Positions 2,977-44,733 are shown, counted from the first letter of the stretch. The stretch is 52,103 nucleotides of DNA from an uncultured Flavobacteriaceae bacterium (GCA_964458125.1 CAYWHE010000001.1:1-52103), one strand, 5' to 3'. The notes: generated by a model from the sequence alone, not told the origin. Program-made: numbers and translations.

Positions 2977-5900
2977 ATGAAAAAGATTCTGACCATCATT
3001 CTGCTTTTTTCATTGTCTTTTCAAGTCCGGGCTTCCCACCTGATGGGTGGGGAAATCACCTGGGTATGTCAACCGAACGGACAGTTTGTTTTTACCATGA
3101 TTCTTTACCGGGATTGCAGCGGAATACCTATTCCAACCGGTGCCCAATCCCTGGAGGTTTATGGTAATCCCCTGATGACTTCCCTATCCCTGCCCAACTG
3201 GTCTACAACGGACATCACTTATTGCCAGCCACAATATAACTGCAACAATGCACCTCCCGGCGCAACGGAACAGGGAGTTTATGTTTCCAATCCAATTACA
3301 CTCAATGGCGTACCCCCGGCAGGCGGGTGGACCTTTGTATGGCACTCCTGCTGCAGGAATGCTGCGTTGGATAATGTGAACGCAGCCGGATTTTCATTAC
3401 GTGCCACCATGTTTCCATACAACGGTCAAAATGTCAATCCCTGCTTTGACAGTTCACCAGCATTTGCCGAGCGTCCGAACACGGTTCTCTGCACAGGTTT
3501 CCCGTTTAAATATAATCATGTGGCCATTGACCCGGAAATGGACTCCCTTGTATATGCCTGGGGACAACCCCTGGAGGAACCCACCAATACGCCCCCCGCA
3601 GCATGGAATCCTGGAACAAACCCATCCTACACCACCTATAACCCGCCCTATTCCGTTGCCAATCCACTTCCATTTAATGCTCCGAACGTGGGAGCAACCA
3701 TCAATCCGTTTAACGGAGAAATCAATTATGCCTGCTATATAGGTGGTAATTTTCTGACCTGTACCAAGGTTACCGCTTATAAATGCGGACAGAAAGTGGC
3801 TGAAATTTTCCGGGAAATCCAGATTGTGATGCTTGGGAATTGTCCTTTGACTTTCACCGGTACTCCGAATGCACCGCCCGTGGTTGATCCGCCATTCCAG
3901 GATTCCACAGGCGCCTTCACCCAATACAATGATACCGTTTATGCAGGTGATACGGTACGTTTTTTTCTGAATGCACATGACTTCGACTTTGTCGTGGTTA
4001 ACGGTGTCCCTCAGCTTCAGAGCCTTGATGTTATGGGCTATAGCGGGCAGTTTGGAGCCGGGTTCACAAACCCGAATGCCGGATGCCTCATCCCCCCCTG
4101 TGCGACTACCTCGCCCGCCCTGCCAAGCGTCGGTAACATTGCCGGATCCAATATTGCCTTCACCTGGCCCACGACCTGTGATCACGTGATCGGATTCAAC
4201 CAGGGGTGTGTGAAATTGTCCAATACTTACACCTTCTTTTTCAGGAACCAGGACAACTTCTGTCCTGCTCCCCAGATCGCTTACAGTACCATTACCATCA
4301 CGGTGCTGGCTCCTCCGGCCATTGACTCCTCCCAGATCCGCTGTACGGCCGTTGGCCTGGCGGGTGATGTGACCCTGACCTGGGCCAAAGCCTACGATAA
4401 AAAAACACCCAACGATACCGCGGCCTCTTTCTATTGTTACCAGATCTGGAGGGCTCCAGCTGCAGCAGGACCGTATACACTCATTGACAGCATTTTCAAT
4501 ATCAATACCACCAGCTATACCGATAATGCAGTCAACGGACAAACCGGCCGCTACTGGTATTATTCCCGGACCCGCTATGGTTGCGATGGTGACTGGAAAA
4601 CAGGAAACACCGACTCCGTTTCGACCATCCTGCTGAATGTATCAAGCGTCACACCTGGTATTGCCCAGCTGAACTGGAATGCCATTCACACCCCCTTGTT
4701 CAGCAGTTCCCTGCCGCATTACAAAATTTACAGGGAGTCTCCGCCAACCGTGTGGACCCTGATCGATTCCACCACCTCCTTATCGTATATTGATACAGTT
4801 AGCATTATCTGCAACGATTCGATCAACTACCGCGTACAGATTGAGGATTCCATCGGCTGCACCTCGGTCTCGTCAATTGATGGCATCCGTTTTTCCATTG
4901 CTCCACAGCCAGATCCGCCCTCCCTGCGCTGCATTGCCGTACAGGTAAACGGGAGCCAGACACTGACCTGGGTGCCTCCCGTGGATACAGCCGTGCAATA
5001 TGACGGGTACTTTATCTACCATGCCAACGGTGCCGTTTACACGTTGCACGACAGCCTGTTCAATTACAGCACGCTTACTTATAACGACAACTCCCTGAAT
5101 GCCAACAACAATTCAGTCGGGCATTTCCTGACCACCCGGTCAGCCTGCGGACCGGCCTATTCCATTAACGGGGATACGTTGAAGAGCATATATCTCCAGG
5201 TGAATAATGTCGGCGGCAATGCCAGCCTTTCATGGAACGCCATGCGTACACCCAAACTTCCTTCAGCCGGCAGCTATTACCGGATATTCAAAGAATACCC
5301 TGCCGGATCCTGGTCCCTGATCGATTCCACAAGCCTGCTCACCTACCTGGACTCCATTTATATCTGCAATGACAGCATCAATTACCGCATCGAATTACCG
5401 GACGCTTCCGGATGCATCTCTGTCTCCAACGTGGATGGGGCCAGGTTCATAGATAATTCCATTCCAGATCCTCCCGAGATCAGGTGTGTTGCCGTTGCCA
5501 CCAACGGTGACGTCACCATCAGCTGGAGTCCGCCGCAGGATACCGGACTGGACTTCAACAGTTACCACATCTATTACAGTCTGAATGCGGGTGGACCGTT
5601 TAATCTCATCGACAGTATTTTCAATTACAACCAGAGTTCTTATACGCATACTGTTACGGCAGCCAACGGGCAGTCGGTTTATTACCAGATGAAGACCCGC
5701 ACCGGTTGCGGAGTTCAGTATTCACCTGCTTCAGCCACTGCACGTTCCATTTACCTCACTGTAGGCGGAACAAACACCAGTATTGCAGCCCTGTCCTGGA
5801 ATGCGGTGCATACGCCAAACCTGCCAACATCTACAGGGACCTACAATATTTACCGGAAGGTGGCAACCGGTCCATGGGCGTTTAGGGCAAGTACCAACTC

Positions 5901-8568
5901 CTTATCGTTTAATGACTCTTTGGTCATTTGTATTGACAGCGTATTTTACCGTATTGAAATCGGGGATGCGCTTCCCTGTGTTTCTGTTTCCAATGTAAAC
6001 GGAAACCGTTTCGTGGACAATACCGTGCCGGCACCTCCTGCCATGCATTGCATTTCGGTATTGCCAAACGGTAATATTAACCTGACCTGGGTTCCGCCCA
6101 CGGATACGGCCCGCCAGTTTAACAGTTATCACATTTTCAGCAGCCTGAATGCCGCCGGTCCCTATATCAAGGTGGACAGTATTTTCAATTACAATGCCAC
6201 CACCTATACTGATATTACGGCCAATGGCAACGCCCAATCCGTATATTATTACCTGGAAACACGTTCCGGATGCGGGGTTCAGTACTCTTCAATTTCGGAA
6301 ATCCTGCAAAGCATCTACCTTCAGGTTGGCGGTGGCGGTACCTCTGTCGCTAACCTGAGCTGGAATGCCATTCACACGCCTAACCTGCCCAGTTCCACCG
6401 GTGTTTACAAGGTATTCCGGGAATATCCGGCCGGTACCTGGAACCAGATCGGATCAACTCCATCGCTCAGTTATGATGACAGCCTGCATTTGTGTACGGA
6501 TCGCGTCAATTACCGCGTGGAGATTTCCGATAACCTTCCCTGCGTTTCCGTTTCCAGCGTAAACGGGGATATCTTTGTAGACAATACCATTCCCGGCTCA
6601 CCCGAACCGCGCTGTGTTTCCGTATTAACCAACGGTGATGTGACCATTACCTGGCAGGCACCTGTTGATACCGGTCTCGACTTCAACAGCTATCATATTT
6701 ATACCAGCAATAATCCGGGAGGTCCATTTATTGAAATCGACAGTATTTTTGACTATGGAACCACCACCACGACTCATTTGGGCGCCAATGCAAATAACCA
6801 GTCGGTTTATTACATACTGAAAACACGCACCGGATGCGGGGTACAATATTCACCGGCTTCCGTGCTGATTCAAAGCATCAAACTCAACGTGACCAATCCA
6901 GGTAACGGAGTGGCCAATCTGAACTGGAATCCCACTCATAACCCACTGCTGCCAACAGCTTCGGCCACTTATGATGTGTATAAGGAATATCCTGCCGGAA
7001 CCTGGGCCAAGATTGCAACAGTGGGAGAACCCCATTATGAAGACTCCATCACCGTTTGTTCGGAAACCATTAATTACTATGTAGAAACCTTTGATAACCT
7101 GCCTTGCAACTCAGTTTCAAGCCGCGATGGCGACCTCTTCCAGGATATTATTCCTCCATCCATTCCCGTACTCGACACGGTTAGTGTTAACCCATACGAC
7201 AGCCTGGTTACCATTACCTGGAACCAGAATCCGTCCGGAGACACCAAAGGATATATTATATACCAGTTTAATGGTGTGACCTGGGATTCCGTTGGCGCCA
7301 CCACTTCCATCTCCGCCATCAGCCTGCTGAACCTTAATTCCCAGGCTGCCCAGGAATCCGAGATTTATGCCGTTGCCGCCTATGACAGCTGCGGCAACCT
7401 GAGTCCCCTAAGCGTTCAGCACAACACCATTTTCCTGCAGGTGCAGCTGAATAAGTGCAAAGGAGCCATAGACCTGGAATGGGTAGCCTATCAGAACATG
7501 GAAAGCGGTGTGGCCAAGTACAATATTTTTGCCAGTGAAAACGGAGGTCCATACCTGATGGTCGGGTCAACAGCCGGTAATGAAACAACCTTCTCGCATG
7601 GCCCGCTGACCAAGTATGCCACCTATTGTTATTTCGTACAGGCCGTCAGTACCAACGGACTTCATACTGCTTCTTCCAATATCGCTTGCGAATTTGCCGA
7701 TGTTTTACAGCTTCCTCTTTTCTCCTACCTGAAAAAGGTTACTGTTACCGGACCAAGGTCGGTATATGGGGAATGTTTTGTTGACACGGCCGCCGATGTA
7801 ACCTCTTACAGGCTCATGCGCTCGATGAAACTGGCAGGTCCTTACAGCACTGTTGCGCTGAGTTACGATACCCTGAACCCGGTGATCTCTTTCAACGATA
7901 CAACTCCAATAACAACCGAAACGGATTACTTCTATATCGTCATTACCACTAGTAATTGCGGTGTGGACGTGTACACCAGCAATATCGGCCATACCATTTA
8001 CCTGCAGGCCAAACCACAGGATAATTTTATCAATACCCTGGAATGGAATAATTATGAGGAATGGCTGGGTAAGGTTCAGCATTATAAAATTTACCGAAAG
8101 GTGGACAATGCACCGGTATTTGAACAGATTGCCGATGTACCATATGGCATCACCACCTATGTGGATCATATCCCTCAATTCTACATGGGAGAAGGAAATT
8201 TCTGCTATTATGTTGAAGCTTATGAAGGTGCCGGCAATGCGTTCGGATTCTCTGAAATCAGTGCATCCAATGAAGATTGCGCCATCCAGTCACCGCAATT
8301 GTATGTTCCAAATGCCTTTACCCCGGGAGGAAAAAATCCTGTCTTCTACCCTGTTAATATCTTTACGGATGAAAACAACAATTACTTCTTTTCCGTTTTC
8401 AACCGCTGGGGAGAAAAGATATTTGAAACCCATGATCCCAAACAGGGCTGGGATGGTAAATTCAACGGGACGCTCGCTCCCCAGGGTACCTATGTGTATT
8501 ATGTCCGGCTCTATGGTAACAGCGGGGAAAAACGTGAAAAGAAAGGCTGGGTAAACCTGATCCGGTAG
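2977..8568 (+). CDS. Giant secreted cell-surface adhesin-like protein with T9SS type B (gliding-motility-associated) C-terminal sorting domain
   Basis: 1863-aa ORF with signal peptide MKKILTIILLFSLSFQVRA. A Cys-rich N-terminal domain begins SHLMGGEITW. A long array of FN3-like repeat pairs follows. The last ~90 aa (LYVPNAFTPGG...FSVFNRWGEKIFE...GWDGKFNG...PQGTYVYYV) match the gliding-motility C-terminal domain (TIGR04131 type). Confidence 0.85.
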   Translation: MKKILTIILLFSLSFQVRASHLMGGEITWVCQPNGQFVFTMILYRDCSGIPIPTGAQSLEVYGNPLMTSLSLPNWSTTDITYCQPQYNCNNAPPGATEQGVYVSNPITLNGVPPAGGWTFVWHSCCRNAALDNVNAAGFSLRATMFPYNGQNVNPCFDSSPAFAERPNTVLCTGFPFKYNHVAIDPEMDSLVYAWGQPLEEPTNTPPAAWNPGTNPSYTTYNPPYSVANPLPFNAPNVGATINPFNGEINYACYIGGNFLTCTKVTAYKCGQKVAEIFREIQIVMLGNCPLTFTGTPNAPPVVDPPFQDSTGAFTQYNDTVYAGDTVRFFLNAHDFDFVVVNGVPQLQSLDVMGYSGQFGAGFTNPNAGCLIPPCATTSPALPSVGNIAGSNIAFTWPTTCDHVIGFNQGCVKLSNTYTFFFRNQDNFCPAPQIAYSTITITVLAPPAIDSSQIRCTAVGLAGDVTLTWAKAYDKKTPNDTAASFYCYQIWRAPAAAGPYTLIDSIFNINTTSYTDNAVNGQTGRYWYYSRTRYGCDGDWKTGNTDSVSTILLNVSSVTPGIAQLNWNAIHTPLFSSSLPHYKIYRESPPTVWTLIDSTTSLSYIDTVSIICNDSINYRVQIEDSIGCTSVSSIDGIRFSIAPQPDPPSLRCIAVQVNGSQTLTWVPPVDTAVQYDGYFIYHANGAVYTLHDSLFNYSTLTYNDNSLNANNNSVGHFLTTRSACGPAYSINGDTLKSIYLQVNNVGGNASLSWNAMRTPKLPSAGSYYRIFKEYPAGSWSLIDSTSLLTYLDSIYICNDSINYRIELPDASGCISVSNVDGARFIDNSIPDPPEIRCVAVATNGDVTISWSPPQDTGLDFNSYHIYYSLNAGGPFNLIDSIFNYNQSSYTHTVTAANGQSVYYQMKTRTGCGVQYSPASATARSIYLTVGGTNTSIAALSWNAVHTPNLPTSTGTYNIYRKVATGPWAFRASTNSLSFNDSLVICIDSVFYRIEIGDALPCVSVSNVNGNRFVDNTVPAPPAMHCISVLPNGNINLTWVPPTDTARQFNSYHIFSSLNAAGPYIKVDSIFNYNATTYTDITANGNAQSVYYYLETRSGCGVQYSSISEILQSIYLQVGGGGTSVANLSWNAIHTPNLPSSTGVYKVFREYPAGTWNQIGSTPSLSYDDSLHLCTDRVNYRVEISDNLPCVSVSSVNGDIFVDNTIPGSPEPRCVSVLTNGDVTITWQAPVDTGLDFNSYHIYTSNNPGGPFIEIDSIFDYGTTTTTHLGANANNQSVYYILKTRTGCGVQYSPASVLIQSIKLNVTNPGNGVANLNWNPTHNPLLPTASATYDVYKEYPAGTWAKIATVGEPHYEDSITVCSETINYYVETFDNLPCNSVSSRDGDLFQDIIPPSIPVLDTVSVNPYDSLVTITWNQNPSGDTKGYIIYQFNGVTWDSVGATTSISAISLLNLNSQAAQESEIYAVAAYDSCGNLSPLSVQHNTIFLQVQLNKCKGAIDLEWVAYQNMESGVAKYNIFASENGGPYLMVGSTAGNETTFSHGPLTKYATYCYFVQAVSTNGLHTASSNIACEFADVLQLPLFSYLKKVTVTGPRSVYGECFVDTAADVTSYRLMRSMKLAGPYSTVALSYDTLNPVISFNDTTPITTETDYFYIVITTSNCGVDVYTSNIGHTIYLQAKPQDNFINTLEWNNYEEWLGKVQHYKIYRKVDNAPVFEQIADVPYGITTYVDHIPQFYMGEGNFCYYVEAYEGAGNAFGFSEISASNEDCAIQSPQLYVPNAFTPGGKNPVFYPVNIFTDENNNYFFSVFNRWGEKIFETHDPKQGWDGKFNGTLAPQGTYVYYVRLYGNSGEKREKKGWVNLIR
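4311..7150 (+). repeat. Five in-frame tandem coding repeats (~555-600 nt, ~185-200 aa each) inside the adhesin gene
   Basis: Units start at about 4311, 4911, 5464, 6028 and 6592 and end near 7150. Each unit has the form P-P-x-x-RC-x-V-x-x-NGD-VT-L/I-TW...FNSYHIY...IDSIFNY...YY...TR(T/S)GCGVQYS...SIYL...LSWNA-HTP-LP...Y-I/V-F/Y-(K/R)EYPAG-W...INYR(V/I)E...C-SVS. More diverged copies continue to about 8290. Confidence 0.8.
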
Positions 8569-22295: not shown

Positions 22296-22389
22296 TCCCC
22301 ACCTGGCAGAAGGCGCTGTTTTTCGCAGTTTATTGAATTTTCAGCTTTTTTTCATATTTTCGTCTTATAAATTAATAAGCCGGTTTCCT

Positions 22390-24558
22390 ATGAAAAAAAC
22401 AGTCTTTCTTACCCCCGCAATCATTTTATTCCTGCTGTTGAAGGTTATTGCCCAGACAGGCTCCTACAACCAAACTGCACCAAACATTTACAGTGTGAAT
22501 AGTTACACCAATGTAACGTTTACCAATACCCCGTACTACGCTTCCTCCGGGACACTTGCTTTTTCTTGGATTGCATGCCATCAGCCCGGCTTTGGAGCCA
22601 GCACGGTCAATGTTGACCTGCTGACCAGTACCGGTTACCAAAACATAGCCAGTTACAGCAGTTCGCTTGACTGCAGCTCCATCAGTCAAAGTAAATCCTT
22701 AAGCGGTTCGCAACTTTCAGATGCTGTCGTAGCCGGAGCCGGCAACATTATTTTCAGATTTTATATTTCCGACGGCTGCCAGGCCGGTGTAGGATGCGCC
22801 TCTATAAACGACCCGGCCGTCATCGGTATTAACCTGACATACCCTTATTCCATTGCCGACTTCACCGTCAGCGATACCACCTTATGCCCTGGCCAAACCA
22901 TTACCTTTACCGATATAACCCCGGGTACGGTTAACAGCCGCAATTGGAGTTTTCCCGGCGGCTCCCCTTCATCCGCTACCGGAGCCTCGCCTTCCGTCAC
23001 CTACAATACACCCGGCTGGTATAATGTCACACTGACCACTACCGGTCCCGGAGGGAGTAATACCACCACGAAAACCGCCCTTCTATATGTCTATACACCA
23101 CCCGTTGCAACCATCACCCCGGGAGGCCCTGTTACTTTCTGCAACGGAGGTTCGGTAAACCTGCAGGCCAATACAGGACCGGGATTATCCTATACCTGGA
23201 AAAAAAGCGGAAACATTATCAACGGGGCCTCCAATGCATCCTATTCCGCCACCACCTCCGCCAATTATAAAGTGGTGGTGACCAGTTCCGATGGTTGCAG
23301 TACGACATCCGCCATCGTGACCGTGACGGTCAATGCCAATCCCACGGCCATCATTTCTGCCAACGGACCGGTTACGTTCTGCCCGGGTGGTACGGTTACC
23401 CTTCAGGCACTGACCGGTGGCGGGTTTACATATAAATGGAAAAAAAACAACGTGCTCATCAGTGGTGCCACCACTTCTTCCTATGCCGCAACCACCAGTG
23501 GGAATTACAGCTGCAAGGTCACCAACGGTAACGGCTGCTCATCCAGCAGCAATACCATCGGTGTTACCGTCAATACCCCGAAAGCCACACTTACCCTGTC
23601 GGGCAATGCCACCTTTTGCCAGGGAGGATCTGCTCTGCTGAAAGCCAATACCGGCAGCGGGTTAACCTATCAGTGGATCAGGAACGGGGCCAATATTTCC
23701 GGGGCAGCGGACTCAGCGTATACAGTTACCGTTAGCGGAAATTATAAGGTTAAAGTGACCAACAATTGCGGCAGTTCAACGTCAACGGTCAAAACCATTA
23801 CGGTCAACAGCCTGCCATCCGCTTCCATTTCCGCCAATGGTCCGCTTACGTTTTGCAGCGGCTCCACCGTCACACTCAATGCCAATACGGGAACAGGATT
23901 AACTTATGTGTGGAAGAAAAACAACAGCACGATTTCAGGCGCTACCGGTTCTTCCTATGTGGCTTCGACACAAGGATCGTATAAGGTGGTGGTTACCAAT
24001 GCGTCGGGATGTACAGCGGTGTCCAACACGCTGACAGTAGCGGTTAATGCCACCATTGCCAGCATCACACCAGGAGGCCCGCTTTCCTTTTGCAGCGGCG
24101 ACAGTGTTGTCCTGACTGCCAACAGCGGGGCAGGGCTTACCTACCAATGGCTGAAAAACAACACCAACATCAGCGGAGCAACCTCCATCAGTCATACAGC
24201 CAAAACAGCCGGTACATATAAAGTTATAGTTACGAATTCGACCACCGGTTGCGCTGCCATTTCTTCCGGGCTCAGCGTTACCGTAAACTGCAAAATTTCC
24301 GGAACGGGCGGAGACTTTCATGTCCTCGTAGTTCCGAATCCCTTCACCTACGATTTCCTGGTGACCTTTGAAAACTTCAGCCAGGATCCACTCCTTGGCG
24401 AAGTTTATTCGATGACCGGACAGTTACTCAGCAGTCAGGTTATTCCGGATCCTCAAAACGGTTTCCGCACCGGCCAGGATTTGCCGGCGGGCATATACCT
24501 CCTGAAAATACGACAGGGAACAGAAACCAGGAACATGAGTCTGGTAAAAGGAAAATAG
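22390..24558 (+). CDS. Secreted repeat protein with PKD domain and T9SS type A C-terminal sorting domain
   Basis: The start is taken at ATG 22390 (MKKTVFLTPAIILFLLLKVIAQ signal). A PKD-like segment is present (FTVSD...FTD.....R.WSFPGG.P....G.SP.VTY..PG.Y.VTL). Five Cys-pair repeats follow. The C-terminus VVPNPFTYDFLVTF...LPAGIYLLKI....T....LVK matches the Por_Secre_tail type. Confidence 0.8.
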   Translation: MKKTVFLTPAIILFLLLKVIAQTGSYNQTAPNIYSVNSYTNVTFTNTPYYASSGTLAFSWIACHQPGFGASTVNVDLLTSTGYQNIASYSSSLDCSSISQSKSLSGSQLSDAVVAGAGNIIFRFYISDGCQAGVGCASINDPAVIGINLTYPYSIADFTVSDTTLCPGQTITFTDITPGTVNSRNWSFPGGSPSSATGASPSVTYNTPGWYNVTLTTTGPGGSNTTTKTALLYVYTPPVATITPGGPVTFCNGGSVNLQANTGPGLSYTWKKSGNIINGASNASYSATTSANYKVVVTSSDGCSTTSAIVTVTVNANPTAIISANGPVTFCPGGTVTLQALTGGGFTYKWKKNNVLISGATTSSYAATTSGNYSCKVTNGNGCSSSSNTIGVTVNTPKATLTLSGNATFCQGGSALLKANTGSGLTYQWIRNGANISGAADSAYTVTVSGNYKVKVTNNCGSSTSTVKTITVNSLPSASISANGPLTFCSGSTVTLNANTGTGLTYVWKKNNSTISGATGSSYVASTQGSYKVVVTNASGCTAVSNTLTVAVNATIASITPGGPLSFCSGDSVVLTANSGAGLTYQWLKNNTNISGATSISHTAKTAGTYKVIVTNSTTGCAAISSGLSVTVNCKISGTGGDFHVLVVPNPFTYDFLVTFENFSQDPLLGEVYSMTGQLLSSQVIPDPQNGFRTGQDLPAGIYLLKIRQGTETRNMSLVKGK
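23098..24290 (+). repeat. Five in-frame tandem coding repeats (~231-240 nt, 77-80 aa) in the T9SS type A cargo
   Basis: Units start at about 23098, 23341, 23581, 23818 and 24049. The pattern is (I/L)(T/S)..G(P)xxFC.GGSV.L.AN(T/S)G.GLTY.WKKN...I.GA..S.Y.A..SG.YKV.VTN..GC...S....V(T)VN. Confidence 0.75.
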
Positions 24559-24562
24559 CGGT

Positions 24563-26467
24563 TTACTCCTCCACCACCGCACCACCCCGGTACAATTGTT
24601 TACGGTATTTCAGGGAAGGTGAAGGAATAAAGGCTCCCAGTCCCAGTTTGGGCCATAGGCGGTCAATGTGTTCAATGGTTGCGGTATCGGATGCCAGGAT
24701 ATTGGGCCATTCCCTGTCAAATCCATCCATTTCCTTTGTTTTTCGGGTACCGTCAAAAGCGAGATGTGCAGGAGCGTTTTGATTTTCCTGCACCAAAAAA
24801 TGATCCCGTTTCGGATCTGCATTATTCGAAAATCGCCAGACAGCATCTGAAATATCGGAAATATCAACGGTATGTTCCAGGAAGATGATCACCTTAACGG
24901 AATCAAAATCCTTCCTGGAAAACAGTTCGTTGGCAAGTTCCCGGACATGGTTCACCCGGTTTTTCCGGATGGCCAGGAACAGGATTGAAATCTCCATCAG
25001 CAGCAGTGAATCATTGATGGAGGTGATTTCAGGGAACAGATCCGGAAGTTTCTCCTTTACGGCATGATTCCAGGCATGAACAGGTGTGATTTTTTTCACC
25101 ATCACCTCTTCCGGTAATTTGCAGGTTGCATCAATACCCATCTTACCGCCAAAAGCCATTCGTGAACAGGAGTGGTCGAGCACATCAGTAGGACCCTGGG
25201 TGAAGATGATATCCGTGGCCGGATCCGTATGGGCTGAAATAAACCGGGCCACCTCTGCCTGGTTGTGGATGTTGACATCACCATCAACAATAATCATCAT
25301 CTTGGTGAACATCATTTGCCCGGCACCCCATAAGCTGTTCATTACCTTGAGGGCCTGGCCGGGATAATCCTTTTTTATTTTCACGATAACCAGGTTGTGA
25401 AAAACGCCTTCAACGGGCATCACCATGTCCACAATTTCAGGGACCATGGTCATTTTGATCGGCGCAATAAAAATACGTTCGGTGGCCTTCCCGATCCAGG
25501 CATCCTCCTGGGGCGGAATGCCTACGATGGTAGCCGGGTATATGGTGTCCTTCCGATGCGTGATGGCCGTAATGTGAAAACGCGGATAGTAATCGGCAAG
25601 TGAATAATAACCGGTATGATCACCGAATGGGCCTTCCAGGATAAAGTCTTCCGTGGGGTCAATAAAGCCTTCGATGATGATTTCGGCATCAGCCGGAACC
25701 TGCATGGGCTGCGTCAGACATTGCACCAGTTCGACTTTTTTCCGGCGGATAAATCCGGCCAGAATGAATTCATCGATTCCATCCGGTAATGGTGCAGTTG
25801 CCGCATAGGTGCAGGCCGGATCTCCACCCAGTGAAATCACTACAGGCATCCTGATTTTTAGTTTCTTATATTCGTTAAAATGCCGGGCGCTGACCTTGTG
25901 CCGGTGCCAGTGCATGGCGGTAAGCGTGGGTCCAAATACCTGCATGCGGTATAGTCCTACATTTCGGGTTCCGGTATGCGGGTCAAGGGTCTGAATAACA
26001 GGCAGGGTAAGAAAGGGACCACCGTCTTCGGGCCAGCATTTCAGAACAGGGAACCTGGTAACATCCGGATCTTTCATGATCACTTCCTGGCAGGGACCGC
26101 GGCCTTTGATGACGGCCGGCATCCAGGAAGCTATCTCACCAAGCTGTGGCAACATTTTTATTTTTTCCAGCAGCGTGATGCGGGGAACCGTCATGGTTTT
26201 GATCAGGGTTTCCATGCTCTTCGGCAGGTCATCCAGGTGTTCAACACCCAGGGCCATGGCCATTCTTTTTTCCGTACCCATGGCGTTGATCAGCAAGGGG
26301 AAGCCGGTTCCCGTATTTTCAAAAAGCAGGGCTGGCCCGTATTTTTTTGAAATACGATCTGTAATTTCGGTGATCTCCAGATGAGGATTGATATATTCCT
26401 TAATGCGGACAAGTTCGCCGGATTTCTCGAGTAACTGTATAAAATCGCGTATATCGCGGTATGCCAT
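24563..26467 (-). CDS. UbiD-family (prenyl-FMN dependent) decarboxylase, menaquinone/ubiquinone-biosynthesis type, with extended C-terminus
   Basis: It is collinear with E. coli UbiD from [35 protein letters not shown] (ATG at 26467) through [27 protein letters not shown] and GGKMGIDAT. It is 634 aa, compared with about 500 for UbiD. The longer 727-aa ORF in the track would overlap yqeY, and I reject it. Confidence 0.88.
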   Translation of the reverse strand: [634 protein letters not shown]

Positions 26468-26576
26468 GGACTTGCTGTTTAATTGGTAAAAGTAACAATT
26501 AAGACGGGAAAAGGATTTGTTCCTTCCGGGGTGCCTGACCTGCCTGAACATCCATTCCTGACCTATTGACGGATAA

Positions 26577-26612
26577 GAAAAAACCGCCCCCTCACTAACC
26601 AAGAGGAGGCGG
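26577..26612 (-). terminator. Probable rho-independent terminator after yqeY (end of the ftsZ-yqeY transcript)
   Basis: On the minus strand, the stem CCGCCTCCTC / GAGGGGGCGG (one mismatch) has a 9-nt loop and is followed by TTTTTTC (plus-strand A-tract at 26577-26583). A second AT-rich 9-bp hairpin (26617-26651) lies just upstream. Confidence 0.6.
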
Positions 26613-26666
26613 TGAAAATAAGACTCAATTAAACCCCCGATAAGTCTTATTATAAAACGATGGATT

Positions 26667-27116
26667 TCATCCTCCCAGCAATTGTTTGACCAATTGGGAA
26701 ATGATCCTGTTATCAGCTTTTCCGGCCAGTTGTTTCGAGGCCACACCCATCACCTTTCCCATATCACCAGGCGAAACCGCACCGGTACTGCCGATGATTT
26801 GCCTCAAAACTTCCCTGATATCCTCTTCACTCATCTGTGCCGGCAGAAATTTTTCAATCACGTCCAGTTCCTCCTGCTCACCCTTAACAAGGTCTTCGCG
26901 ATTCTGCTGCTGGTAAATAGCCATGGATTCCCTTCGCTGCTTGACCAATTTTTGCAGTATTTTCATCTCTTCATCACTGCTCAGTACACTTCCGCTTCCG
27001 CTGGTTTTAGTGAGCAGGATCGCGGATTTCACAGCCCGGAGGGCACGCAGTCCCGCTTCGTTTTTGGCCAGCATAGCGGTTTTGATTTCCGAATTTATTT
27101 TTTCTTCCAGTGTCAT
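26667..27116 (-). CDS. yqeY: GatB/YqeY domain-containing protein
   Basis: 149-aa ORF with I..A.KA.....L..LR...SAI, E...IL.K..KQR.ES...Y.......L...E..E..VIE.FLP, and a C-terminal MGKVMG......GKAD. It sits directly downstream of ftsZ, as is common in Bacteroidota. Confidence 0.85.
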   Translation of the reverse strand: MTLEEKINSEIKTAMLAKNEAGLRALRAVKSAILLTKTSGSGSVLSSDEEMKILQKLVKQRRESMAIYQQQNREDLVKGEQEELDVIEKFLPAQMSEEDIREVLRQIIGSTGAVSPGDMGKVMGVASKQLAGKADNRIISQLVKQLLGG

Positions 27117-27243: not shown

Positions 27244-28971
27244 TCAGTCTACACGGTCGTGCAGGAAGGTATTGTTTGATTTGATTTCTGTTTTGTTCTG
27301 GTCTTCCGTCAGGGAATACCTGGACACCTGGGATTCCGCTGAAGGTGCTACAGGTTCCAGCTTGATGTTCCTTCTTTTGTAGGCCGGCTCCTTTTCCAGG
27401 TCGTTCAATCCTCCCGGCGTATTCATCTTATAGCTCAGGTCCCTGAGTTTCATGATTCGCTCCCGGGAACGCTGGAAAGCATCTTCAACAACCGGCTCCG
27501 GCTTTACGATTTCCGTAAATTTTTCGTTTACGGGTTCCGTTTCAAATTTTGGAGCAACCGGGACCGGGGCCGCCGGAGCTGCAGGAGTTATAGTGGTGAC
27601 AGGGGAAGGTGTAAGGGAAACAGGCTCCATTTCCTTCTCCGGGGAAGCCAGTGCAGGAATATCGAAGAGAAATGTTTTGGCCGCTTCCGGTGTTTCCCTG
27701 ATAATCAGCACCGGTTCAGGAATGGAAAAGAGATCTGTTTCGGTTGCCGGGGTTTCATTCAGGGGAATTATATCCTTCGAAACCTCCGGTACCGGAACAG
27801 GCTGTATGGCCTCTGCTTCTGTTTGTTTTAGGACAGGCTCCAATTCCGGCTTGAGTGCTACAGACAGGGAGTCCAGGTTTTCAGGCGCCACTTCCTTTTT
27901 ATATCCTGTCGTTTCAGTTGACGGACCTGCTCCGGCATCTGCCGCTGGCTTTTCATCAAGCAGCTGGTAAACTTTCCGGTCGGTTTGTTTTTTCTCGGCA
28001 ACCTGTTCCGTTTTTGTTTTAAAGCCGGTTGCTATGATGGTGACGGAAATTTCCTCTCCGAGCATTTCATCCGTACCCTGTCCGAGAATGATTTCCGCCG
28101 TCTGCCCTGCCTGCTCCTGGACATATTCATTGATGTCGCCCATTTCATCCATGGTAATTTCCACCTGACCCGATACAATATTCAGCAGTATGTAACGGGC
28201 ACCTTCAATGCTGTTATCATTCAGCAGGGGCGAATCAAGGGCCTGTTCTACGGCACGAATGGCGCGATTTTCACCGGCAGAACGCGCCGAGCCCATGATG
28301 GCCACCCCGCTGTTGCTCATCACGGTCTGGATATCGGCAAAATCCACATTCATATGAAGGGTAACCGTAATGATTTCTGCTATGCTTTTTGCTGCAGTGG
28401 TCAATACATCATCGGCATGTCCAAAGGCTTCACTGAGTTTCAGATTTCCATAAATCTCACGCAGTTTGTCGTTACAGATGATCAGCAATGTATCCACGTT
28501 ACGCTTCAGTTCATCAATGCCGAGATCGGCCTGGGTCTTTCTTTTCTTGCCTTCAAATGAAAAAGGAACGGTGCAAATGCCTACGGTGAGGATTCCCATT
28601 TCTTTTGCAATACCGGCAATGATTGGCGCTGCACCGGTTCCTGTTCCACCGCCCATGCCGGCGGTAATAAAGACCATTTTGGTCTGGGTGCCGAGGAGTT
28701 CCCTGATCTGTTCAATGTTTTCAATGGCAGCGTTCTTTCCTATTTCAGGAATCGAGCCTGCTCCACGACCTTCTGTCAGGGTTGGACCCAGTTGTATTTT
28801 AACGGGCACAGGACTGATTTCAAGCGCCTGGTGATCGGTATTGCAAACAATAAAGTCAACACCCTTTATGCCCTGCCGGTACATGTGGTTCACGGCATTG
28901 CTTCCGCCTCCACCAACACCAATAACTTTGATGATGGATGGTTTTTCCTTCGGTAATTCAAATTGCATCAT
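27244..28971 (-). CDS. ftsZ: Cell division GTPase FtsZ
   Basis: 575-aa ORF with the tubulin signature GGGTGTGAAP, plus IKVIGVGGGGSNAVNHM and NTDHQAL. It has a long Pro/Glu/Thr-rich linker and a conserved Bacteroidota C-terminal region (EPAYKRR...FLHDRVD). Confidence 0.97.
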   Translation of the reverse strand: MMQFELPKEKPSIIKVIGVGGGGSNAVNHMYRQGIKGVDFIVCNTDHQALEISPVPVKIQLGPTLTEGRGAGSIPEIGKNAAIENIEQIRELLGTQTKMVFITAGMGGGTGTGAAPIIAGIAKEMGILTVGICTVPFSFEGKKRKTQADLGIDELKRNVDTLLIICNDKLREIYGNLKLSEAFGHADDVLTTAAKSIAEIITVTLHMNVDFADIQTVMSNSGVAIMGSARSAGENRAIRAVEQALDSPLLNDNSIEGARYILLNIVSGQVEITMDEMGDINEYVQEQAGQTAEIILGQGTDEMLGEEISVTIIATGFKTKTEQVAEKKQTDRKVYQLLDEKPAADAGAGPSTETTGYKKEVAPENLDSLSVALKPELEPVLKQTEAEAIQPVPVPEVSKDIIPLNETPATETDLFSIPEPVLIIRETPEAAKTFLFDIPALASPEKEMEPVSLTPSPVTTITPAAPAAPVPVAPKFETEPVNEKFTEIVKPEPVVEDAFQRSRERIMKLRDLSYKMNTPGGLNDLEKEPAYKRRNIKLEPVAPSAESQVSRYSLTEDQNKTEIKSNNTFLHDRVD

Positions 28972-29011
28972 GCTGAATAATTTTTAAATTGGTTAGTATT
29001 TCTTTGGGTTA

Positions 29012-29641
29012 TCATGATTTGGATATGCGCTCAATGCACTCGTAAATCAACCGGGCAAGAGCCATGAGCTTTTCTTCATTCGTTATAATTTGCAGATCTT
29101 CGGGCCTTTCCGACAGGTTGATTTCCACCTGCAGGGCTGGTGCGGCCGCATCCTTCAGCCTGCTCATATCCGATTCGATCATTCCGTTCACCCGCAGATT
29201 CAGCCGCGAGGCCCTGGCTTCGCTGACCACCATATTGGCAAACTTGATCGACTGAAACATATAATCATTATCTTCAGAATAATAGACGTTTACGCCTCTT
29301 TTCTCCTGATCACGGCTGATCTGCAGGGTGATGTTCAGAATCAGGTCAGGTTTCGCCTGATGACCTGTAATTCCGACGGTGTCGCTGACTTCATTTCCGA
29401 AATGGATGGAGAACTTCCTGTTTTTTGCAAGCTCATTCACTTTTGCGATGAGCCTGCTTTCTACCTGACCAAAGTCGATGCTGTCTTTCGAAAGATCCAT
29501 ATTATTCCATTCATACCCCAGGTTAACCGTTACGCTAAACTGTTCCTTATTATCCTGTTTATCGGTATTACCGCTGCGCGCCTGTAAACCGGACAGGATC
29601 AGCAATGTTCCTGTTATGTAAAATATCAATCCCGCTCTCAT
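29012..29641 (-). CDS. Signal-anchored protein with a degenerate N-acetylmuramoyl-L-alanine amidase (Amidase_3)-like domain, encoded between ftsA and ftsZ
   Basis: 209 aa from ATG 29641, which lies 4 nt after the ftsA stop. N-terminus is MRAGLIFYITGTLLILSGLQA. By-eye alignment to PF01520: VTVNLGYEW / ivIDpGHGG, KPDLILNITLQ / kaDlfvSiHaN, GVNVYY, APALQVEINLSERPEDL / mPavLvElGfisNpeD. Both His zinc ligands appear substituted. Confidence 0.6.
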   Translation of the reverse strand: MRAGLIFYITGTLLILSGLQARSGNTDKQDNKEQFSVTVNLGYEWNNMDLSKDSIDFGQVESRLIAKVNELAKNRKFSIHFGNEVSDTVGITGHQAKPDLILNITLQISRDQEKRGVNVYYSEDNDYMFQSIKFANMVVSEARASRLNLRVNGMIESDMSRLKDAAAPALQVEINLSERPEDLQIITNEEKLMALARLIYECIERISKS

Positions 29642-29645
29642 CTGC

Positions 29646-30926
29646 TTACGCCAAATTTGGATCCTCACCCTCATCTCCGAAAATTCCCTTTTTAAATATC
29701 ACATCAAACCATTTTCCCTTTGTTTTTGCCGGCTGCACCACATCGGGCTGTTTCTTTTTATTCCTGCGTTCCTTTTCCGCTTCCTGCAGCCCCCGGATAA
29801 CCAGGCCTACGGCAGTGGCATACATGGGACTTTTAATCTCATCCATTCCCTTTCCCAGGTGTTCATTCGGGAATCCGATGCGGGTATCCATACCGGTAAT
29901 GTATTCTATCAGCTGGGTCACATGTTTCAGCTGGGCACCGCCTCCTGTCACCACGATACCTGCTATCAGTTTTTTCTCGAACCCTGAACTCTTTATTTCA
30001 TAATGCACATGCTCGATGATCTCCTCCATACGCGCCTGAATGATGTTGGCCAGGTTTTTAACCGAAATCTCCTTGGGTTCCCTGCCGCGCAGACCCGGGA
30101 TGGAAACGATTTCATTCTCCTGGGCCTGCTGGGCCAGGGCAGAACCGAACTTCACCTTGAGCAATTCGGCCTGGTTGCGGATGATGCTGCATCCTTCCCG
30201 TATATCGTCCGTAATTACATTTCCTCCAAAAGGAATCACTGCCGTATGCCGGATGATGCCATCCTGGAACATGGCAATATCGGTGGTACCCCCGCCGATA
30301 TCCACCAGTACCACACCGGCTTCCTTTTCTTCATCGGTCAGCACGGCATCGGCGGAGGCCAAAGGCTCCAGCACCAGGTCGATCGGATTGAGGCCTGCCT
30401 TATGAACGCATTTTTCAATGTTTTTGGCGGCCGTAATCTGCCCGGTGATGATGTGGCAATTCGCTTCCAGCCTGGCGCCAACCATGCCGATTGGGTCCTT
30501 GATGCCCTGTTCGCTGTCTACGATATATTCCTGCGGGATCACATGAATAATCTCCTCTCCCGGCGGCATGGCCAGCTTATACATATCCTCAATGATGGCA
30601 TCAATATCTACCTGGCTGATTTCCTCATCCATGCTTCTCCTTGTCCGCATGCCCCTGTGCTGCATGCTTTTTATATGCTGACCGGCGATGCCGACAAGGA
30701 CATCGCTGATATTGACCCCCGCCTTATTGCTGGCCTCGCTGATGGCATCTTTGATGGATTGCACGGTTTTGTCAATATTGGCTACCATGCCCCGCATCAC
30801 ACCTACGGATTCGGCCTTGCCCATGCCCATTATTTCAATCTTGCCGAATTCATTCCTCCGCCCTACCATCGCACAGATTTTGGTGGTACCAATATCGAGT
30901 CCTACTATTATTTCTGAGTTTTCCAT
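29646..30926 (-). CDS. ftsA: Cell division protein FtsA (actin-like ATPase)
   Basis: 426-aa ORF with IVGLDIGTTKICAMVG, VLVDIGGGTTDIAMF and VVTGGGAQL. It has a C-terminal basic/amphipathic tail (KGKWFDVIFKKGIFGD). Confidence 0.95.
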   Translation of the reverse strand: MENSEIIVGLDIGTTKICAMVGRRNEFGKIEIMGMGKAESVGVMRGMVANIDKTVQSIKDAISEASNKAGVNISDVLVGIAGQHIKSMQHRGMRTRRSMDEEISQVDIDAIIEDMYKLAMPPGEEIIHVIPQEYIVDSEQGIKDPIGMVGARLEANCHIITGQITAAKNIEKCVHKAGLNPIDLVLEPLASADAVLTDEEKEAGVVLVDIGGGTTDIAMFQDGIIRHTAVIPFGGNVITDDIREGCSIIRNQAELLKVKFGSALAQQAQENEIVSIPGLRGREPKEISVKNLANIIQARMEEIIEHVHYEIKSSGFEKKLIAGIVVTGGGAQLKHVTQLIEYITGMDTRIGFPNEHLGKGMDEIKSPMYATAVGLVIRGLQEAEKERRNKKKQPDVVQPAKTKGKWFDVIFKKGIFGDEGEDPNLA

Positions 30927-30930
30927 GTCG

Positions 30931-31731
30931 TTACAATTTGGAACACACCACCTGGTTTTTAAATTTCAGGTTGATGGTGCGATAGGTGTTCCATCCTATA
31001 TTGTTCAGTCCCCTTTTATAAAACAACATGAGCTTTTCCAGTTTTTCATGCAGGTTCCCGATATCGCCCAGGATGATCCGATGGTTGCCGATGCGGGGAA
31101 TCATTTCTATTTCCTGCCACTCATTCACATACAACTGTTCGATCTGCGCATTCCAGAAAGTGTCGAGGCGAAGTGTATTCGCGAGCGTATATAACTGTTC
31201 AAGCATCAACCTCCCGGTGGTGGTATCCGACTCGCTGCATTCCAGGTTATAAATCCTCCGTTCGGAAAAGGTATTGAATATATACCCATTTGCCACCAGA
31301 ACCGGAGCCGTAAATTTTCCGGAAACCGGCATGAATACTCCATTTTCATCGATATAGAAATCTTCCGACCGGGTATTCATGACCCGCAGGACAGGATTCC
31401 GCTGCCGGACCCGGATGTCAATTTTTCCATCAATCGTTGAAAATACTTCGGCATTCTCAATGAACGGGTTTGCCTGGATGTTTTTTTCCAACAGGGCTGT
31501 GTTGATATCCTCGAGGCGGCTGCCCTTTAACTTTTGCCCGCGGCTGCTGAGCATATCCATCACATCCTCGGCTTCCACAAAAAAATTACCCGGTCCCTCT
31601 TCCACCACAACCTGCACCTCCAGGCAGGTTCTGTTCTTCTGACGGGAACCCACAAAGCCCATGACCGTAAAAAGAACAAGCGCCCCTGAAGTCCAAAGGC
31701 TCCACCGTAAAATTTTTTTATACTTTTTCAT
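30931..31731 (-). CDS. ftsQ: Cell division protein FtsQ (POTRA domain)
   Basis: 266-aa ORF with an N-terminal TM anchor (WTSGALVLFTVMGFVG) and a POTRA-like segment (...IE.NPFIENAEVF....G.I.I.V.QR.PVLRV). It sits between murC and ftsA. Confidence 0.8.
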   Translation of the reverse strand: MKKYKKILRWSLWTSGALVLFTVMGFVGSRQKNRTCLEVQVVVEEGPGNFFVEAEDVMDMLSSRGQKLKGSRLEDINTALLEKNIQANPFIENAEVFSTIDGKIDIRVRQRNPVLRVMNTRSEDFYIDENGVFMPVSGKFTAPVLVANGYIFNTFSERRIYNLECSESDTTTGRLMLEQLYTLANTLRLDTFWNAQIEQLYVNEWQEIEMIPRIGNHRIILGDIGNLHEKLEKLMLFYKRGLNNIGWNTYRTINLKFKNQVVCSKL

Positions 31732-42204: not shown

Positions 42205-43128
42205 TTAACCGGTTATTTCCATAATCCTCTCTCCTACCCGAAGGCGCGCACTTCTTGCCCTGGGGTTCAACTTCACTTCCTCTTCAGAGGCCAGGATGGG
42301 TTTTCGGCTGATAGCCCTGAAACATATATTCAGGTTGTTTCCAAAGAGATCCCTCTGCGTTTCTCCCTCAAAATTTCCATGACTGATGAAATTTTTAACC
42401 AGCCTGTCTTCCAGTGAATGATAAGACATCACCACCAGCCGGCCACCGATGACTAAGGCCTCCTTTGCCTGCTGTAAAAACTGCCTGAGTACTTCCAGTT
42501 CTTCATTCACTTCCATGCGCAGAGCCTGAAAAGCCTGGGCCATATATTGGTTCGCATTGGCGCCCACCCTGTTTTTCAGCAATAGCTCGCGGAATTCGCC
42601 AACAGTGGTCAGCGTCTTTACCCTTCTGGCCTGCACAATGGCGCGGGCAAGGGTTCTGGCATTACGCAGTTCACCGTATGCCGAAAAGACATGCTGCAAG
42701 GCTTCTGCACTGTAATCATTTAATACCGTGACGGCCGTTTTGGATCCCGATTTGCTCATCCGCATATCCATTTTCTCATCAAACCTGATGGAAAATCCCC
42801 TTGACGGATCATCGAACTGGTGCGAGGACACCCCCAGGTCAGCCAGAATGCCGTCCACCGGAAGGCATTGATTGTATCGGAGATGGTTCAGCATATATTT
42901 GAAGTTTTGCCTGATCAGGTTAAAGCGGGGGTCTTTAAATTCATTGTTCCATGCATCGGGATCCTGGTCAAAGGCAATCAGTTTTCCATTTTTAAGTTTA
43001 TCAAGAATGGCTTTGGAATGCCCTCCACCGCCAAATGTTACATCGACATAGGTTCCATCCTCCTTTATCTGTAAAGCCCCAAGGCATTCCCGGAGCATGA
43101 CCGGCTTATGATAATCCTGTGTTTCCAC
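42205..43128 (-). CDS. rsmH: 16S rRNA (cytosine1402-N4)-methyltransferase
   Basis: 307-aa ORF with YHKPVML.E, DVTFGGGGHS, DLGVSS.Q.D...RGFS, SYHSLEDR.VK and NPRARSA.LRV. It overlaps the mraZ 3' end by 23 nt. Confidence 0.95.
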   Translation of the reverse strand: METQDYHKPVMLRECLGALQIKEDGTYVDVTFGGGGHSKAILDKLKNGKLIAFDQDPDAWNNEFKDPRFNLIRQNFKYMLNHLRYNQCLPVDGILADLGVSSHQFDDPSRGFSIRFDEKMDMRMSKSGSKTAVTVLNDYSAEALQHVFSAYGELRNARTLARAIVQARRVKTLTTVGEFRELLLKNRVGANANQYMAQAFQALRMEVNEELEVLRQFLQQAKEALVIGGRLVVMSYHSLEDRLVKNFISHGNFEGETQRDLFGNNLNICFRAISRKPILASEEEVKLNPRARSARLRVGERIMEITG

Positions 43129-43579
43129 TCAGGTTAATCTTATCGGTTAACAGCTGTGCCAGCTCAGCAAAATGTTCCGGGGGAGCGGATGTCTGAGCTT
43201 CGAATTTCTGTGGATTCCATACCTCAATCACGTTGGAATAAGCAGCCAACGTGAGCTCCTTATCTATCGAAGCATACTGAAGCAGGGGCTTTGGAAATAG
43301 CAGCCGGCCGGTGGCATCGAGGTCCATTTCGGTGGCTCCCCTGTAGAAGTACCGGATAAACTCCCTGTTCTTCTGATCCAGGCGGTTCAGCTTATTTAAA
43401 ACAGAGGTGATGATCTGCCAGTCGTCCATGGGATACAGGGTCAGACAACTTTCAAAGCCCCTGGTAGCCATAAATTTCTCCTGTGCTGCAGGCGATAGCT
43501 GCTTCCTGAGAACAACAGGCAGCATCATCCTGCCTTTGTCGTCAATCTTGCACTGAAATTCACCTGATAACTGGCTCAT
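43106..43579 (-). CDS. mraZ: Transcriptional regulator MraZ
   Basis: 157-aa ORF with two SpoVT/AbrB-like halves carrying the DxxGR motif (KIDDKGRMMLP and DATGRLLFP). It is the first gene of the dcw cluster. Confidence 0.93.
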   Translation of the reverse strand: MSQLSGEFQCKIDDKGRMMLPVVLRKQLSPAAQEKFMATRGFESCLTLYPMDDWQIITSVLNKLNRLDQKNREFIRYFYRGATEMDLDATGRLLFPKPLLQYASIDKELTLAAYSNVIEVWNPQKFEAQTSAPPEHFAELAQLLTDKINLSGNTGLS

Positions 43580-43908: not shown

Positions 43909-44733
43909 TCAGAACCGACTCACCAAAACCAGGTATGCCACCACAAATGGAATGGAAATAAGCAGGGCATCAAAACGATCCAGCAGACCGCCGTGGCCGG
44001 GAAGGAGTTTTCCGGAATCTTTAATATGAAGGCTTCGCTTGAGCAGGGATTCTGCCAGGTCGCCAAAAGTACCGGTAATCACGATGAGCAGGCCAGTCAC
44101 CGTCCAGTGCAGGTAACTCAATTCAGGAAACCACCCGGCGCAGCACCAGGCAATGAAACCATTCAGCAAAGCTCCGCCAATAGTTCCCTCCCATGATTTT
44201 TTCGGTGAAATCCGCTCAAACAACCGGTGTTTTCCAAAGGCCATACCGGTGAGGTAGGCTCCGGTATCGCTTGCCCACAACAAAAGGAAATAACCGAAAG
44301 CCAGCTGCGGATGGTAAGAACGATCAGGTCCTCCCACATAGGGCAAAACCAATAGAAGGGAAAAGGGAACCGCGATGTAAAAGACGCCCAGAACCGTATA
44401 TGCGATGTTCTGGAAAGGCTGTTCTGACTTCGTATATAACTCATAGATGAAGGCAACAAACAAAACAGGCAGGTTGAGAAGGAGCCAGAAGGGTTCCAGT
44501 ACTTCGAATAAAACGAGACCGGTTGATACCATGATGCAGGCTCCGGACAGGTACCCCGTCAGCAATTGGGGTCTGGTATTATTCACTGAAATAATGCTGA
44601 AGAACTCATGCAGGGTAAGCATGGTAAGCACCAGTACCAGGCCGAACAAGGAATAGGGACTAAGGAGCAGGCAGGCCAGCAGGGTGCCGGTAAACAAAAG
44701 CCCGGTAAGCGTCCGTTTGATTAAATTATTCAC
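43909..44733 (-). CDS. cdsA: Phosphatidate cytidylyltransferase
   Basis: 274-aa polytopic ORF with the CTP_transf_1 signature SDTGAYLTGMAFGKHRL...ISPKKSWEG..GG and KDSGKLLPGHGGLLDRFD. It has a GTG start in a GTGA overlap with the upstream ORF. Confidence 0.9.
   Translation of the reverse strand: MNNLIKRTLTGLLFTGTLLACLLLSPYSLFGLVLVLTMLTLHEFFSIISVNNTRPQLLTGYLSGACIMVSTGLVLFEVLEPFWLLLNLPVLFVAFIYELYTKSEQPFQNIAYTVLGVFYIAVPFSLLLVLPYVGGPDRSYHPQLAFGYFLLLWASDTGAYLTGMAFGKHRLFERISPKKSWEGTIGGALLNGFIAWCCAGWFPELSYLHWTVTGLLIVITGTFGDLAESLLKRSLHIKDSGKLLPGHGGLLDRFDALLISIPFVVAYLVLVSRF

Follow-up and report, generated by a model that had tools for sequence, protein, structure and literature searches.

The window, that is, the whole stretch of 52,103 nucleotides from an uncultured Flavobacteriaceae bacterium that was analyzed here (GCA_964458125.1 CAYWHE010000001.1:1-52103), carries on its minus strand a complete dcw cluster of the Bacteroidota type, which begins with mraZ and leads to an ORF in the position of ftsQ, to ftsA, and to ftsZ (Table 1). 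In bacteria, few gene pairs are as strongly conserved as ftsA and ftsZ. In the window an additional ORF, which will be called X in the following and to whose protein no name is given in public sources, is located between the two. The TAA codon of ftsA at 29648-29646 is followed, 4 nt on, by the ATG of X at 29641, and the TGA of X at 29014-29012 is followed, 40 nt on, by the ATG of ftsZ at 28971. Read from the sequence, the extent of this 209-aa ORF and both distances agree exactly with what had been reported in the initial annotation. Public gene calls for X (P0001) employ an ATG at 29674, which results in a product of 220 aa and a 29-nt overlap with ftsA. We favor the ATG at 29641 because X starts 4-16 nt past the ftsA stop codon in four other lineages; in the lineage of P0062, the start of X does seem to overlap ftsA. 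Across the lineages possessing X, spacers measure 4-16 nt upstream and 40-59 nt downstream of the gene.

X displays the features expected for a division gene of the dcw cluster, i.e., location on the same strand, short spacers, no excess of intervening terminators or promoters, and conserved synteny. Promoter-like and terminator-like sites at X do not exceed the number expected from shuffled sequences. As judged from this arrangement, X is probably transcribed together with ftsA and ftsZ and is probably translationally coupled to ftsA.

Several other features of the window deserve mention in their own right. In the FtsZ encoded here, the Pfam domains stop at residue 318, and about 240 aa rich in Pro, Glu, and Thr link them to the conserved C-terminal peptide. 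The ORF in the ftsQ position shows no Pfam match at all, neither to POTRA nor to an FtsQ domain, and the same is true for its counterparts in related loci. Directly upstream of mraZ lies cdsA (CTP_transf_1), with a LUD-domain gene and ftsH further out; cdsA is also found beside the acquired amiC2 of Neisseriaceae discussed below, which may be a coincidence. For the UbiD-family gene, the longest ORF (727 aa) has a GTG start and overlaps yqeY, and a start near 26479 would agree with the Pfam domains. The region is flanked by two genes for large candidate cargo proteins of type IX secretion, one product comprising 1863 aa with a CHU_C secretion signal and the other PKD/Ig repeats, and the counterpart of the latter in locus L001 has a Por_Secre_tail domain. 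An Rfam scan of the window finds no RNA families.

Table 1. Positions of X, of its predicted segments and active-site columns, and of surrounding genes in the window (residue numbers refer to the 209-aa protein).
Feature	Position	Strand	Remarks
cdsA	43909-44733	-	CTP_transf_1
mraZ	43106-43579	-	first gene of the dcw cluster
mraW, ftsL (FtsL_2 type), ftsI, murE, mraY, murD, ftsW, murG, murC		-	follow mraZ in this order
ftsQ-position ORF	30931-31731	-	266 aa
ftsA	29646-30926	-	426 aa; directly upstream of X; Pfam FtsA PF14450 and SHS2_FTSA PF02491
Spacer between ftsA and X	29642-29645	-	4 nt; translational-coupling distance
X, predicted pseudo-amidase ORF	29012-29641	-	209 aa; span includes stop codon
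Predicted Sec-type signal peptide, residues 1-21	29579-29641	-	MRAGLIFYITGTLLILSGLQA; predicted cleavage after LQA
Short polar linker, residues 22-34	29540-29578	-	RSGNTDKQDNKEQ; pLDDT <50; sequence and length vary in the family
Amidase_3-fold domain, residues 35-209	29015-29539	-	PF01520, hhalign, AlphaFold core, Foldseek
Tyr43 codon, column of first zinc-ligand His (DAGH)	29513-29515	-	Y or C in X family; invariant H in canonical amidases
Phe57 codon, column of zinc-ligand Glu (EK)	29471-29473	-	F, Y, L, or M in X family; invariant E in canonical amidases
Thr105 codon, column of second zinc-ligand His (SxH)	29327-29329	-	S, T, or N in X family; invariant H in canonical amidases
X-specific invariant block, residues 119-157	29171-29287	-	end of strand 4, helix 3, strand 5
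Glu173 codon, column of catalytic Glu (ExG)	29123-29125	-	E in the window protein; E, D, V, or I in X family
X-specific invariant C-terminal helix and tail, residues 189-209	29015-29077	-	EEKLxALAxxIYxCIERISKS; invariant tail CIERISKS
Leader between X and ftsZ	28972-29011	-	A-rich, 40 nt, X stop to ftsZ start; retained ancestral ftsA-ftsZ spacer
ftsZ	27244-28971	-	575 aa; directly downstream of X; Pfam Tubulin PF00091 and FtsZ_C PF12327
yqeY		-	follows ftsZ
ubiD (UbiD-family gene)	24563-26746	-	follows yqeY
Candidate type IX secretion cargo	22333-24558	+	PKD/Ig repeats
Candidate type IX secretion cargo	2977-8568	+	1863 aa; CHU_C

Fold, export signal, and active site of X

A search against Pfam assigns X to Amidase_3 (PF01520) at 38.8 bits, above the gathering score of 27, and with an E-value of 1.3e-9, only positions 64-173 of the profile being matched. 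A PF01520 match is precomputed for all members of the X family. When profiles of 7 X family members and of 17 canonical small amidases are aligned by hhalign, a probability of 99.6% and an E-value of 7e-24 are obtained over 200 collinear columns, the signal peptide included. The AlphaFold2 model of X has a mean pLDDT of 79, a pTM of 0.74, and a core with pLDDT values above 90, and it is disordered only at residues 1-31 and 85-94. With this model as query, the 24 top matches of Foldseek in the PDB are exclusively Amidase_3 enzymes (Rv3717/Ami1, LytH, AmiC2, CwlD, CwlV, AmiB, AmiC, PlyPSA, and AmiA), with E-values down to 3.5e-8 and target-normalized TM-scores of up to 0.72. Pfam detects no domain besides Amidase_3 in X and no M23 domain, no LytM structure occurs among the Foldseek matches, and a scan with NCBIfam yields CwlD as the only match, far below threshold. 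By sequence and by fold, X is a member of the Amidase_3 superfamily, and the resemblance is beyond chance. The motif pairings with PF01520 and their collinearity, which the initial annotation had drawn by eye, are reproduced in alignments with MAFFT and hhalign, and two of the analyses that it had suggested, a profile search against PF01520 and a structural comparison of an AlphaFold model, both lead to this family.

At the N-terminus, each of the 11 X family sequences displays the tripartite features of a signal peptide, consisting of a basic n-region, a hydrophobic core of 12-15 residues with Kyte-Doolittle values of 2.0-3.2, and an Ala ahead of the mature protein, which specifies the "signal or anchor" that had been annotated in this place. 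A lipobox Cys is not conserved in the X family. We infer that X reaches the periplasm by Sec export and that its signal peptide is cleaved.

Residues of X were mapped onto canonical amidases with MAFFT and hhalign, which agree with each other, and family columns were derived from 11 full or partial sequences. Among 18 columns that are invariant in canonical amidases, only G116, P168, and A196 survive in X, and none of these is catalytic or a zinc ligand. The positions of the substrate groove that are invariant in canonical enzymes, i.e., the GHGGxDxG loop, EK, D..R, SxH, ExG, and N, are lost or variable in X. The helix ahead of the second His is deleted and a low-confidence loop at residues 85-94 remains in its place, and there is no position at which His is conserved in the X family. 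What characterizes a functional zinc amidase is missing, since the His-Glu-His ligands are absent and the general-base Glu varies among family members. As initially annotated, both His ligands are replaced (H to Y43 and H to T105). The accompanying statement that the Glu positions are retained stands only in part: the catalytic Glu is present in the window protein as E173, and the zinc-ligand Glu is F57. Moreover, retention of the catalytic Glu applies to this sequence and is not a feature of the family, in which that column is occupied by D in five members, by V in one, and by I in another. With all three zinc ligands lost throughout the family, X most likely has no zinc site and hence no amidase activity, and the Pfam, hhalign, AlphaFold, and Foldseek results bear out the earlier description of X as an Amidase_3 fold that is catalytically dead and carries an export signal at its N-terminus.

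One might argue that X is still a hydrolase, with a non-canonical catalytic center, as E173 is kept in the window protein and E70, D126, E141, E156, E204, and C202 are invariant in the X family. However, a family-conserved His is found nowhere, the residues that substitute the zinc ligands cannot bind a metal in the same way, the column of the general-base Glu holds V or I in two lineages, and the segment preceding the second His has been reduced to a poorly predicted loop. We therefore regard a remaining hydrolase activity as highly improbable.

Distribution and origin of X

The X family is very small, with 10 entries in a set of 5.8 billion protein clusters. When 1.84 billion representatives are searched exhaustively with HMMER, only P0004, P0006, and two fragments are recovered as family members. 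All sources are uncultured soil or environmental metagenomes, and Ga0157380_10000065 and SRR14932562_5992 are two of the X-bearing sequences beside the window. The X family profile finds no match in 185,579 GTDB species genomes, among which the clade has no species representative. In every recovered locus X follows ftsA, and ftsZ comes next wherever the contig reaches that far; FtsA of the window is 93-99% identical to the FtsA proteins of all other X-bearing loci. In contrast to this arrangement, all 77 related GTDB species (FtsA 65-83% identical) lack a gene between ftsA and ftsZ, the gap typically measuring 11-250 nt, so that the position of X is indeed atypical, as had been supposed at the outset. 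The three largest apparent gaps among 80 related loci were considered as possibly gene-bearing and this was rejected, because those of L030 and L017 are accounted for by N-terminal extensions of FtsZ and that of L032 is non-coding. These extensions are unusual for FtsZ: in two Bacteroidia MAGs that do not possess X (L030, 4874-6958; L017, 4885-7119), an acidic stretch of about 130-170 aa starting with MD[FI]Y[GS]IFDE precedes the point where the GTPase domain usually begins.

Downstream of X, the spacer to ftsZ (40 nt) is similar to the one of 41 nt that separates ftsA from ftsZ in L010 (DATEMK010000047), a sister without X, and therefore X was inserted right behind the ftsA stop codon, with the ftsZ leader left intact. 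Inspection of the insertion borders for target-site duplications and inverted repeats revealed nothing meaningful. GC and GC3 of X are like those of its neighbors, and there is no compositional anomaly.

The closest relatives outside the X family are canonical amidases of about 205 aa that bear a signal peptide, and the small Bacteroidota amidases of the Amidase_3 type are the probable parent family of X. No canonical amidase paralog was found in the window or in any of the retrieved loci. A general association of the parent family with division genes was considered and dismissed: in only two of five genomic contexts is a small amidase found beside division or wall genes (one overlaps DivIC/FtsB and one follows ddl), the other three contexts are unrelated, and the link is anecdotal. 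The overlapping case is P0030, a canonical small amidase of 213 aa that shares 8 nt with an upstream gene of the DivIC/FtsB family (L097:5673-6642; L098:1197-2166); its three zinc ligands are all kept, and its catalytic column holds Asp (LIDLG) in place of Glu. More distant matches (P0012, P0017, P0067, P0065, P0066, and P0068) include fusions of Amidase_3 to a BlaR1/M56-like N-terminus or to an HTH_3 DNA-binding domain (PF01381; about 308 aa), which look like transmembrane signaling architectures with the amidase domain on the extracytoplasmic side.

Selection and possible function of X

A Nei-Gojobori analysis of X gives dN/dS ratios (omega) of 0.12-0.24; for the same pairs of genomes the values are 0.10-0.16 for FtsQ, 0.03-0.07 for FtsZ, and 0.01-0.02 for FtsA. 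Although synonymous divergence is saturated, the ORF of X is intact in all lineages. X is under purifying selection at the protein level, with an omega near that of ftsQ, so that the lack of coding-type conservation in related genomes, which the initial annotation had named as speaking against its proposal, is not what is observed. At the same time X diverges fast, being 44-54% identical between lineages whose FtsA proteins share 93-95% of their residues, and the dN of X is roughly double the FtsQ value, which could reflect a marginal or a rapidly changing role.

About 25 positions are invariant in X and variable in true amidases, and they form two clusters (residues 119-157 and 189-209). F35, E70, and K76 are likewise invariant and X-specific. 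The first follows the pattern VYYSEDNDYxFQSIKYANMVVSE..SSRLNLKVNGMxES, and its column conservation is near 1.0 in X versus 0.2-0.5 in canonical amidases; the second consists of the C-terminal helix and tail. The loop that corresponds to GHGGxDxG, connecting strand 1 with helix 1, shows some of the weakest conservation in X. Third codon positions vary in the invariant columns of X (identity 0.32 in the C-terminal block), and hence it is the protein sequence, not the DNA, that is constrained. That the invariant C-terminus of X harbors embedded signals for ftsZ expression was also considered and is rejected on the grounds of these varying third positions and of promoter-like and terminator-like matches that are at or below shuffled expectation. 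On the sequence evidence, we take the switch of conservation away from the catalytic loops and onto residues 119-157 and 189-209 as the signature of a new function and not of decay.

The opposite view would be that X has no function of its own and is the decaying remnant of an amidase, either tolerated or kept for the expression of ftsZ, be it as a spacer, as the site of an internal promoter, or for translational coupling. X does evolve much faster than its neighbors and has a very narrow distribution, and in E. coli promoters of ftsZ are located inside upstream coding regions, as is textbook knowledge. However, omega values of this order indicate purifying selection on the protein, the reading frame persists in all lineages in the face of saturated synonymous change, invariant residues with freely varying third positions are the opposite of what a constraint at the DNA level would produce, and the native leader of ftsZ is kept downstream of X. 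Absence of a function is in our view very unlikely.

If X is functional without being an enzyme, the question arises what it binds. By analogy with EnvC and NlpD, a role in binding septal peptidoglycan or in regulating hydrolases had initially been put forward, and either may apply to X. In the manner of the non-catalytic PGRPs, which derive from Amidase_2 enzymes, a non-catalytic module could employ the old cleft on septal peptidoglycan, shielding stem peptides and so delaying separation, or marking the septum. X retains the fold of an enzyme that binds peptidoglycan, it is predicted to be exported, and the invariant residues N125, D126, E156, and S157 would be placed by topology at the C-terminal ends of strands 4 and 5, the ligand edge of this class of folds. 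Nevertheless, binding of peptidoglycan should not be assumed because the canonical residues of the substrate groove are all lost, each position that is invariant there in canonical enzymes being lost or variable in X. In addition, strand 1 and helix 1 are connected by one of the most weakly conserved parts of X, and a helix together with the C-terminal tail holds most of the new conservation. Loss of the groove and appearance of a newly conserved region elsewhere argue somewhat against the canonical mode of peptidoglycan binding and for binding of a protein, and we consider the use of the old cleft on septal peptidoglycan to be unlikely. A regulator or adaptor that binds another protein is favored instead because the groove residues are lost, the GHGGxDxG loop is poorly conserved, and helix 3, strand 5, and the tail are invariant.

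The model that we prefer can be outlined as follows. X would be an exported, periplasmic, single-domain protein that derives from the small (about 205 aa), signal-peptide-bearing Amidase_3 amidases of Bacteroidota and has lost its zinc site. In one ancestral event within a narrow clade of uncultured Bacteroidia, it would have been placed right after the ftsA stop codon and before the intact native leader of ftsZ, and since then it would be co-transcribed and made together with the Z-ring proteins whenever ftsA and ftsZ are expressed. Once its signal peptide has been cleaved off, X would act in the periplasm without catalysis as a binding or regulatory factor associated with division, recognizing a partner through a newly conserved putative surface formed by residues 119-157, the C-terminal helix, and the CIERISKS tail. 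The likeliest partner might be a septal cell-wall hydrolase or a periplasmic component of the divisome, and septal peptidoglycan bound in a non-canonical manner seems a less likely one. Taken as a whole, the reading of X as a lineage-specific periplasmic pseudo-amidase that is co-expressed with FtsA and FtsZ and functions by binding and not by catalysis is, in our judgment, rather probable.

A more far-reaching version of this model appears possible to us and is put forward only tentatively. X might be a new, lineage-specific component of the periplasmic divisome and the first exported Amidase_3 pseudoenzyme to be described, hard-wired into the ftsA-ftsZ unit. Through the surface of helix 3 and CIERISKS it might control the splitting of the septal wall, for example by restraining or activating the real amidase of the clade or by binding a periplasmic divisome protein, and it might have changed cell separation in the clade. 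If this were true, acquisition of X would have altered the way in which cells of this clade separate, for example towards chaining or filaments.

Comparison with known systems

The practical impact of X is limited, as this is a very rare family of 10 sequences. Its wider interest lies in the fact that a gene situated within ftsA-ftsZ and maintained by purifying selection represents a natural experiment on how a divisome can be given an additional part. The literature search uncovered no described gene between ftsA and ftsZ, no exported dead Amidase_3 protein, and no precedent within a dcw cluster of Bacteroidetes.

Small canonical Amidase_3 proteins of Bacteroidota (about 200-210 aa; P0009, P0010, and P0030) have the same length as X, likewise consist of a signal peptide and a single domain, and share with it 200 collinear columns; they display the same fold as CwlV (1jwq) and the enzyme from C. 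difficile (4rn7). They keep the motifs DAGHGG, EK, SxH, and ExG, whereas X has lost all of these as well as the helix ahead of the second His and possesses invariant blocks of its own. Unlike X, none of the small canonical amidases examined is encoded between ftsA and ftsZ. The autoinhibited division amidases AmiA, AmiB, and AmiC, which carry a Tat or Sec signal, differ from X in having a regulatory helix insert and an AMIN or other targeting domain, X being of the short form with no insert after the VYY strand and without any extra domain, and they rank only 19th-24th in the Foldseek search with the X model.

The only Amidase_3 pseudo-regulator encountered in the literature search is CwlM of mycobacteria, which also has peptidoglycan-binding repeats. 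CwlM resembles X in that the zinc ligands of Amidase_3 are degenerate, and its role is regulatory rather than enzymatic. In contrast to CwlM, X, which occurs in Bacteroidia with its gene lying within ftsA-ftsZ, has a signal peptide and a single domain, and the two proteins are not orthologous. CwlM resides in the cytoplasm and has no secretion signal; it is phosphorylated by PknB and fulfills its essential regulatory function as an Amidase_3 homolog by activating MurA (PMC4946905).

Non-catalytic PGRPs are eukaryotic immune receptors in which the Amidase_2 fold has lost a zinc ligand and which have been kept as binding proteins. They parallel X in being amidase folds with a lost zinc ligand; they differ from it in that Amidase_2 is an unrelated fold and in that their peptidoglycan groove is kept.

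A lineage-specific acquisition of an amidase-family gene that is tied to a change in division or septation is known from Neisseriaceae as well, where AmiC2 was gained in multicellular, longitudinally dividing members, is encoded next to cdsA, and is treated as an active AmiC-like enzyme (PMC9395523). Different from X, amiC2 is located outside the dcw cluster, belongs to Proteobacteria, and is regarded as coding for an active enzyme.

EnvC, NlpD, ActS, and DipM possess the fold of a hydrolase without its catalytic residues and are periplasmic regulators of septal hydrolases (PMC4946905, PMC10336132, PMC12440217). X would have in common with these degenerate LytM factors only the logic, as their fold is LytM/M23 and that of X is Amidase_3. 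Furthermore, degenerate LytM factors activate amidases through displacement of their autoinhibitory helix, whereas the probable parent family of X represents the short form without that insertion. Pseudoenzymes derived from hydrolases, such as EnvC, NlpD, DipM, and CwlM, are key regulators of wall remodeling, and an exported dead Amidase_3 protein would extend this principle to a new combination of fold and compartment and would bring it to Bacteroidota, in which the control of cell separation is poorly studied.
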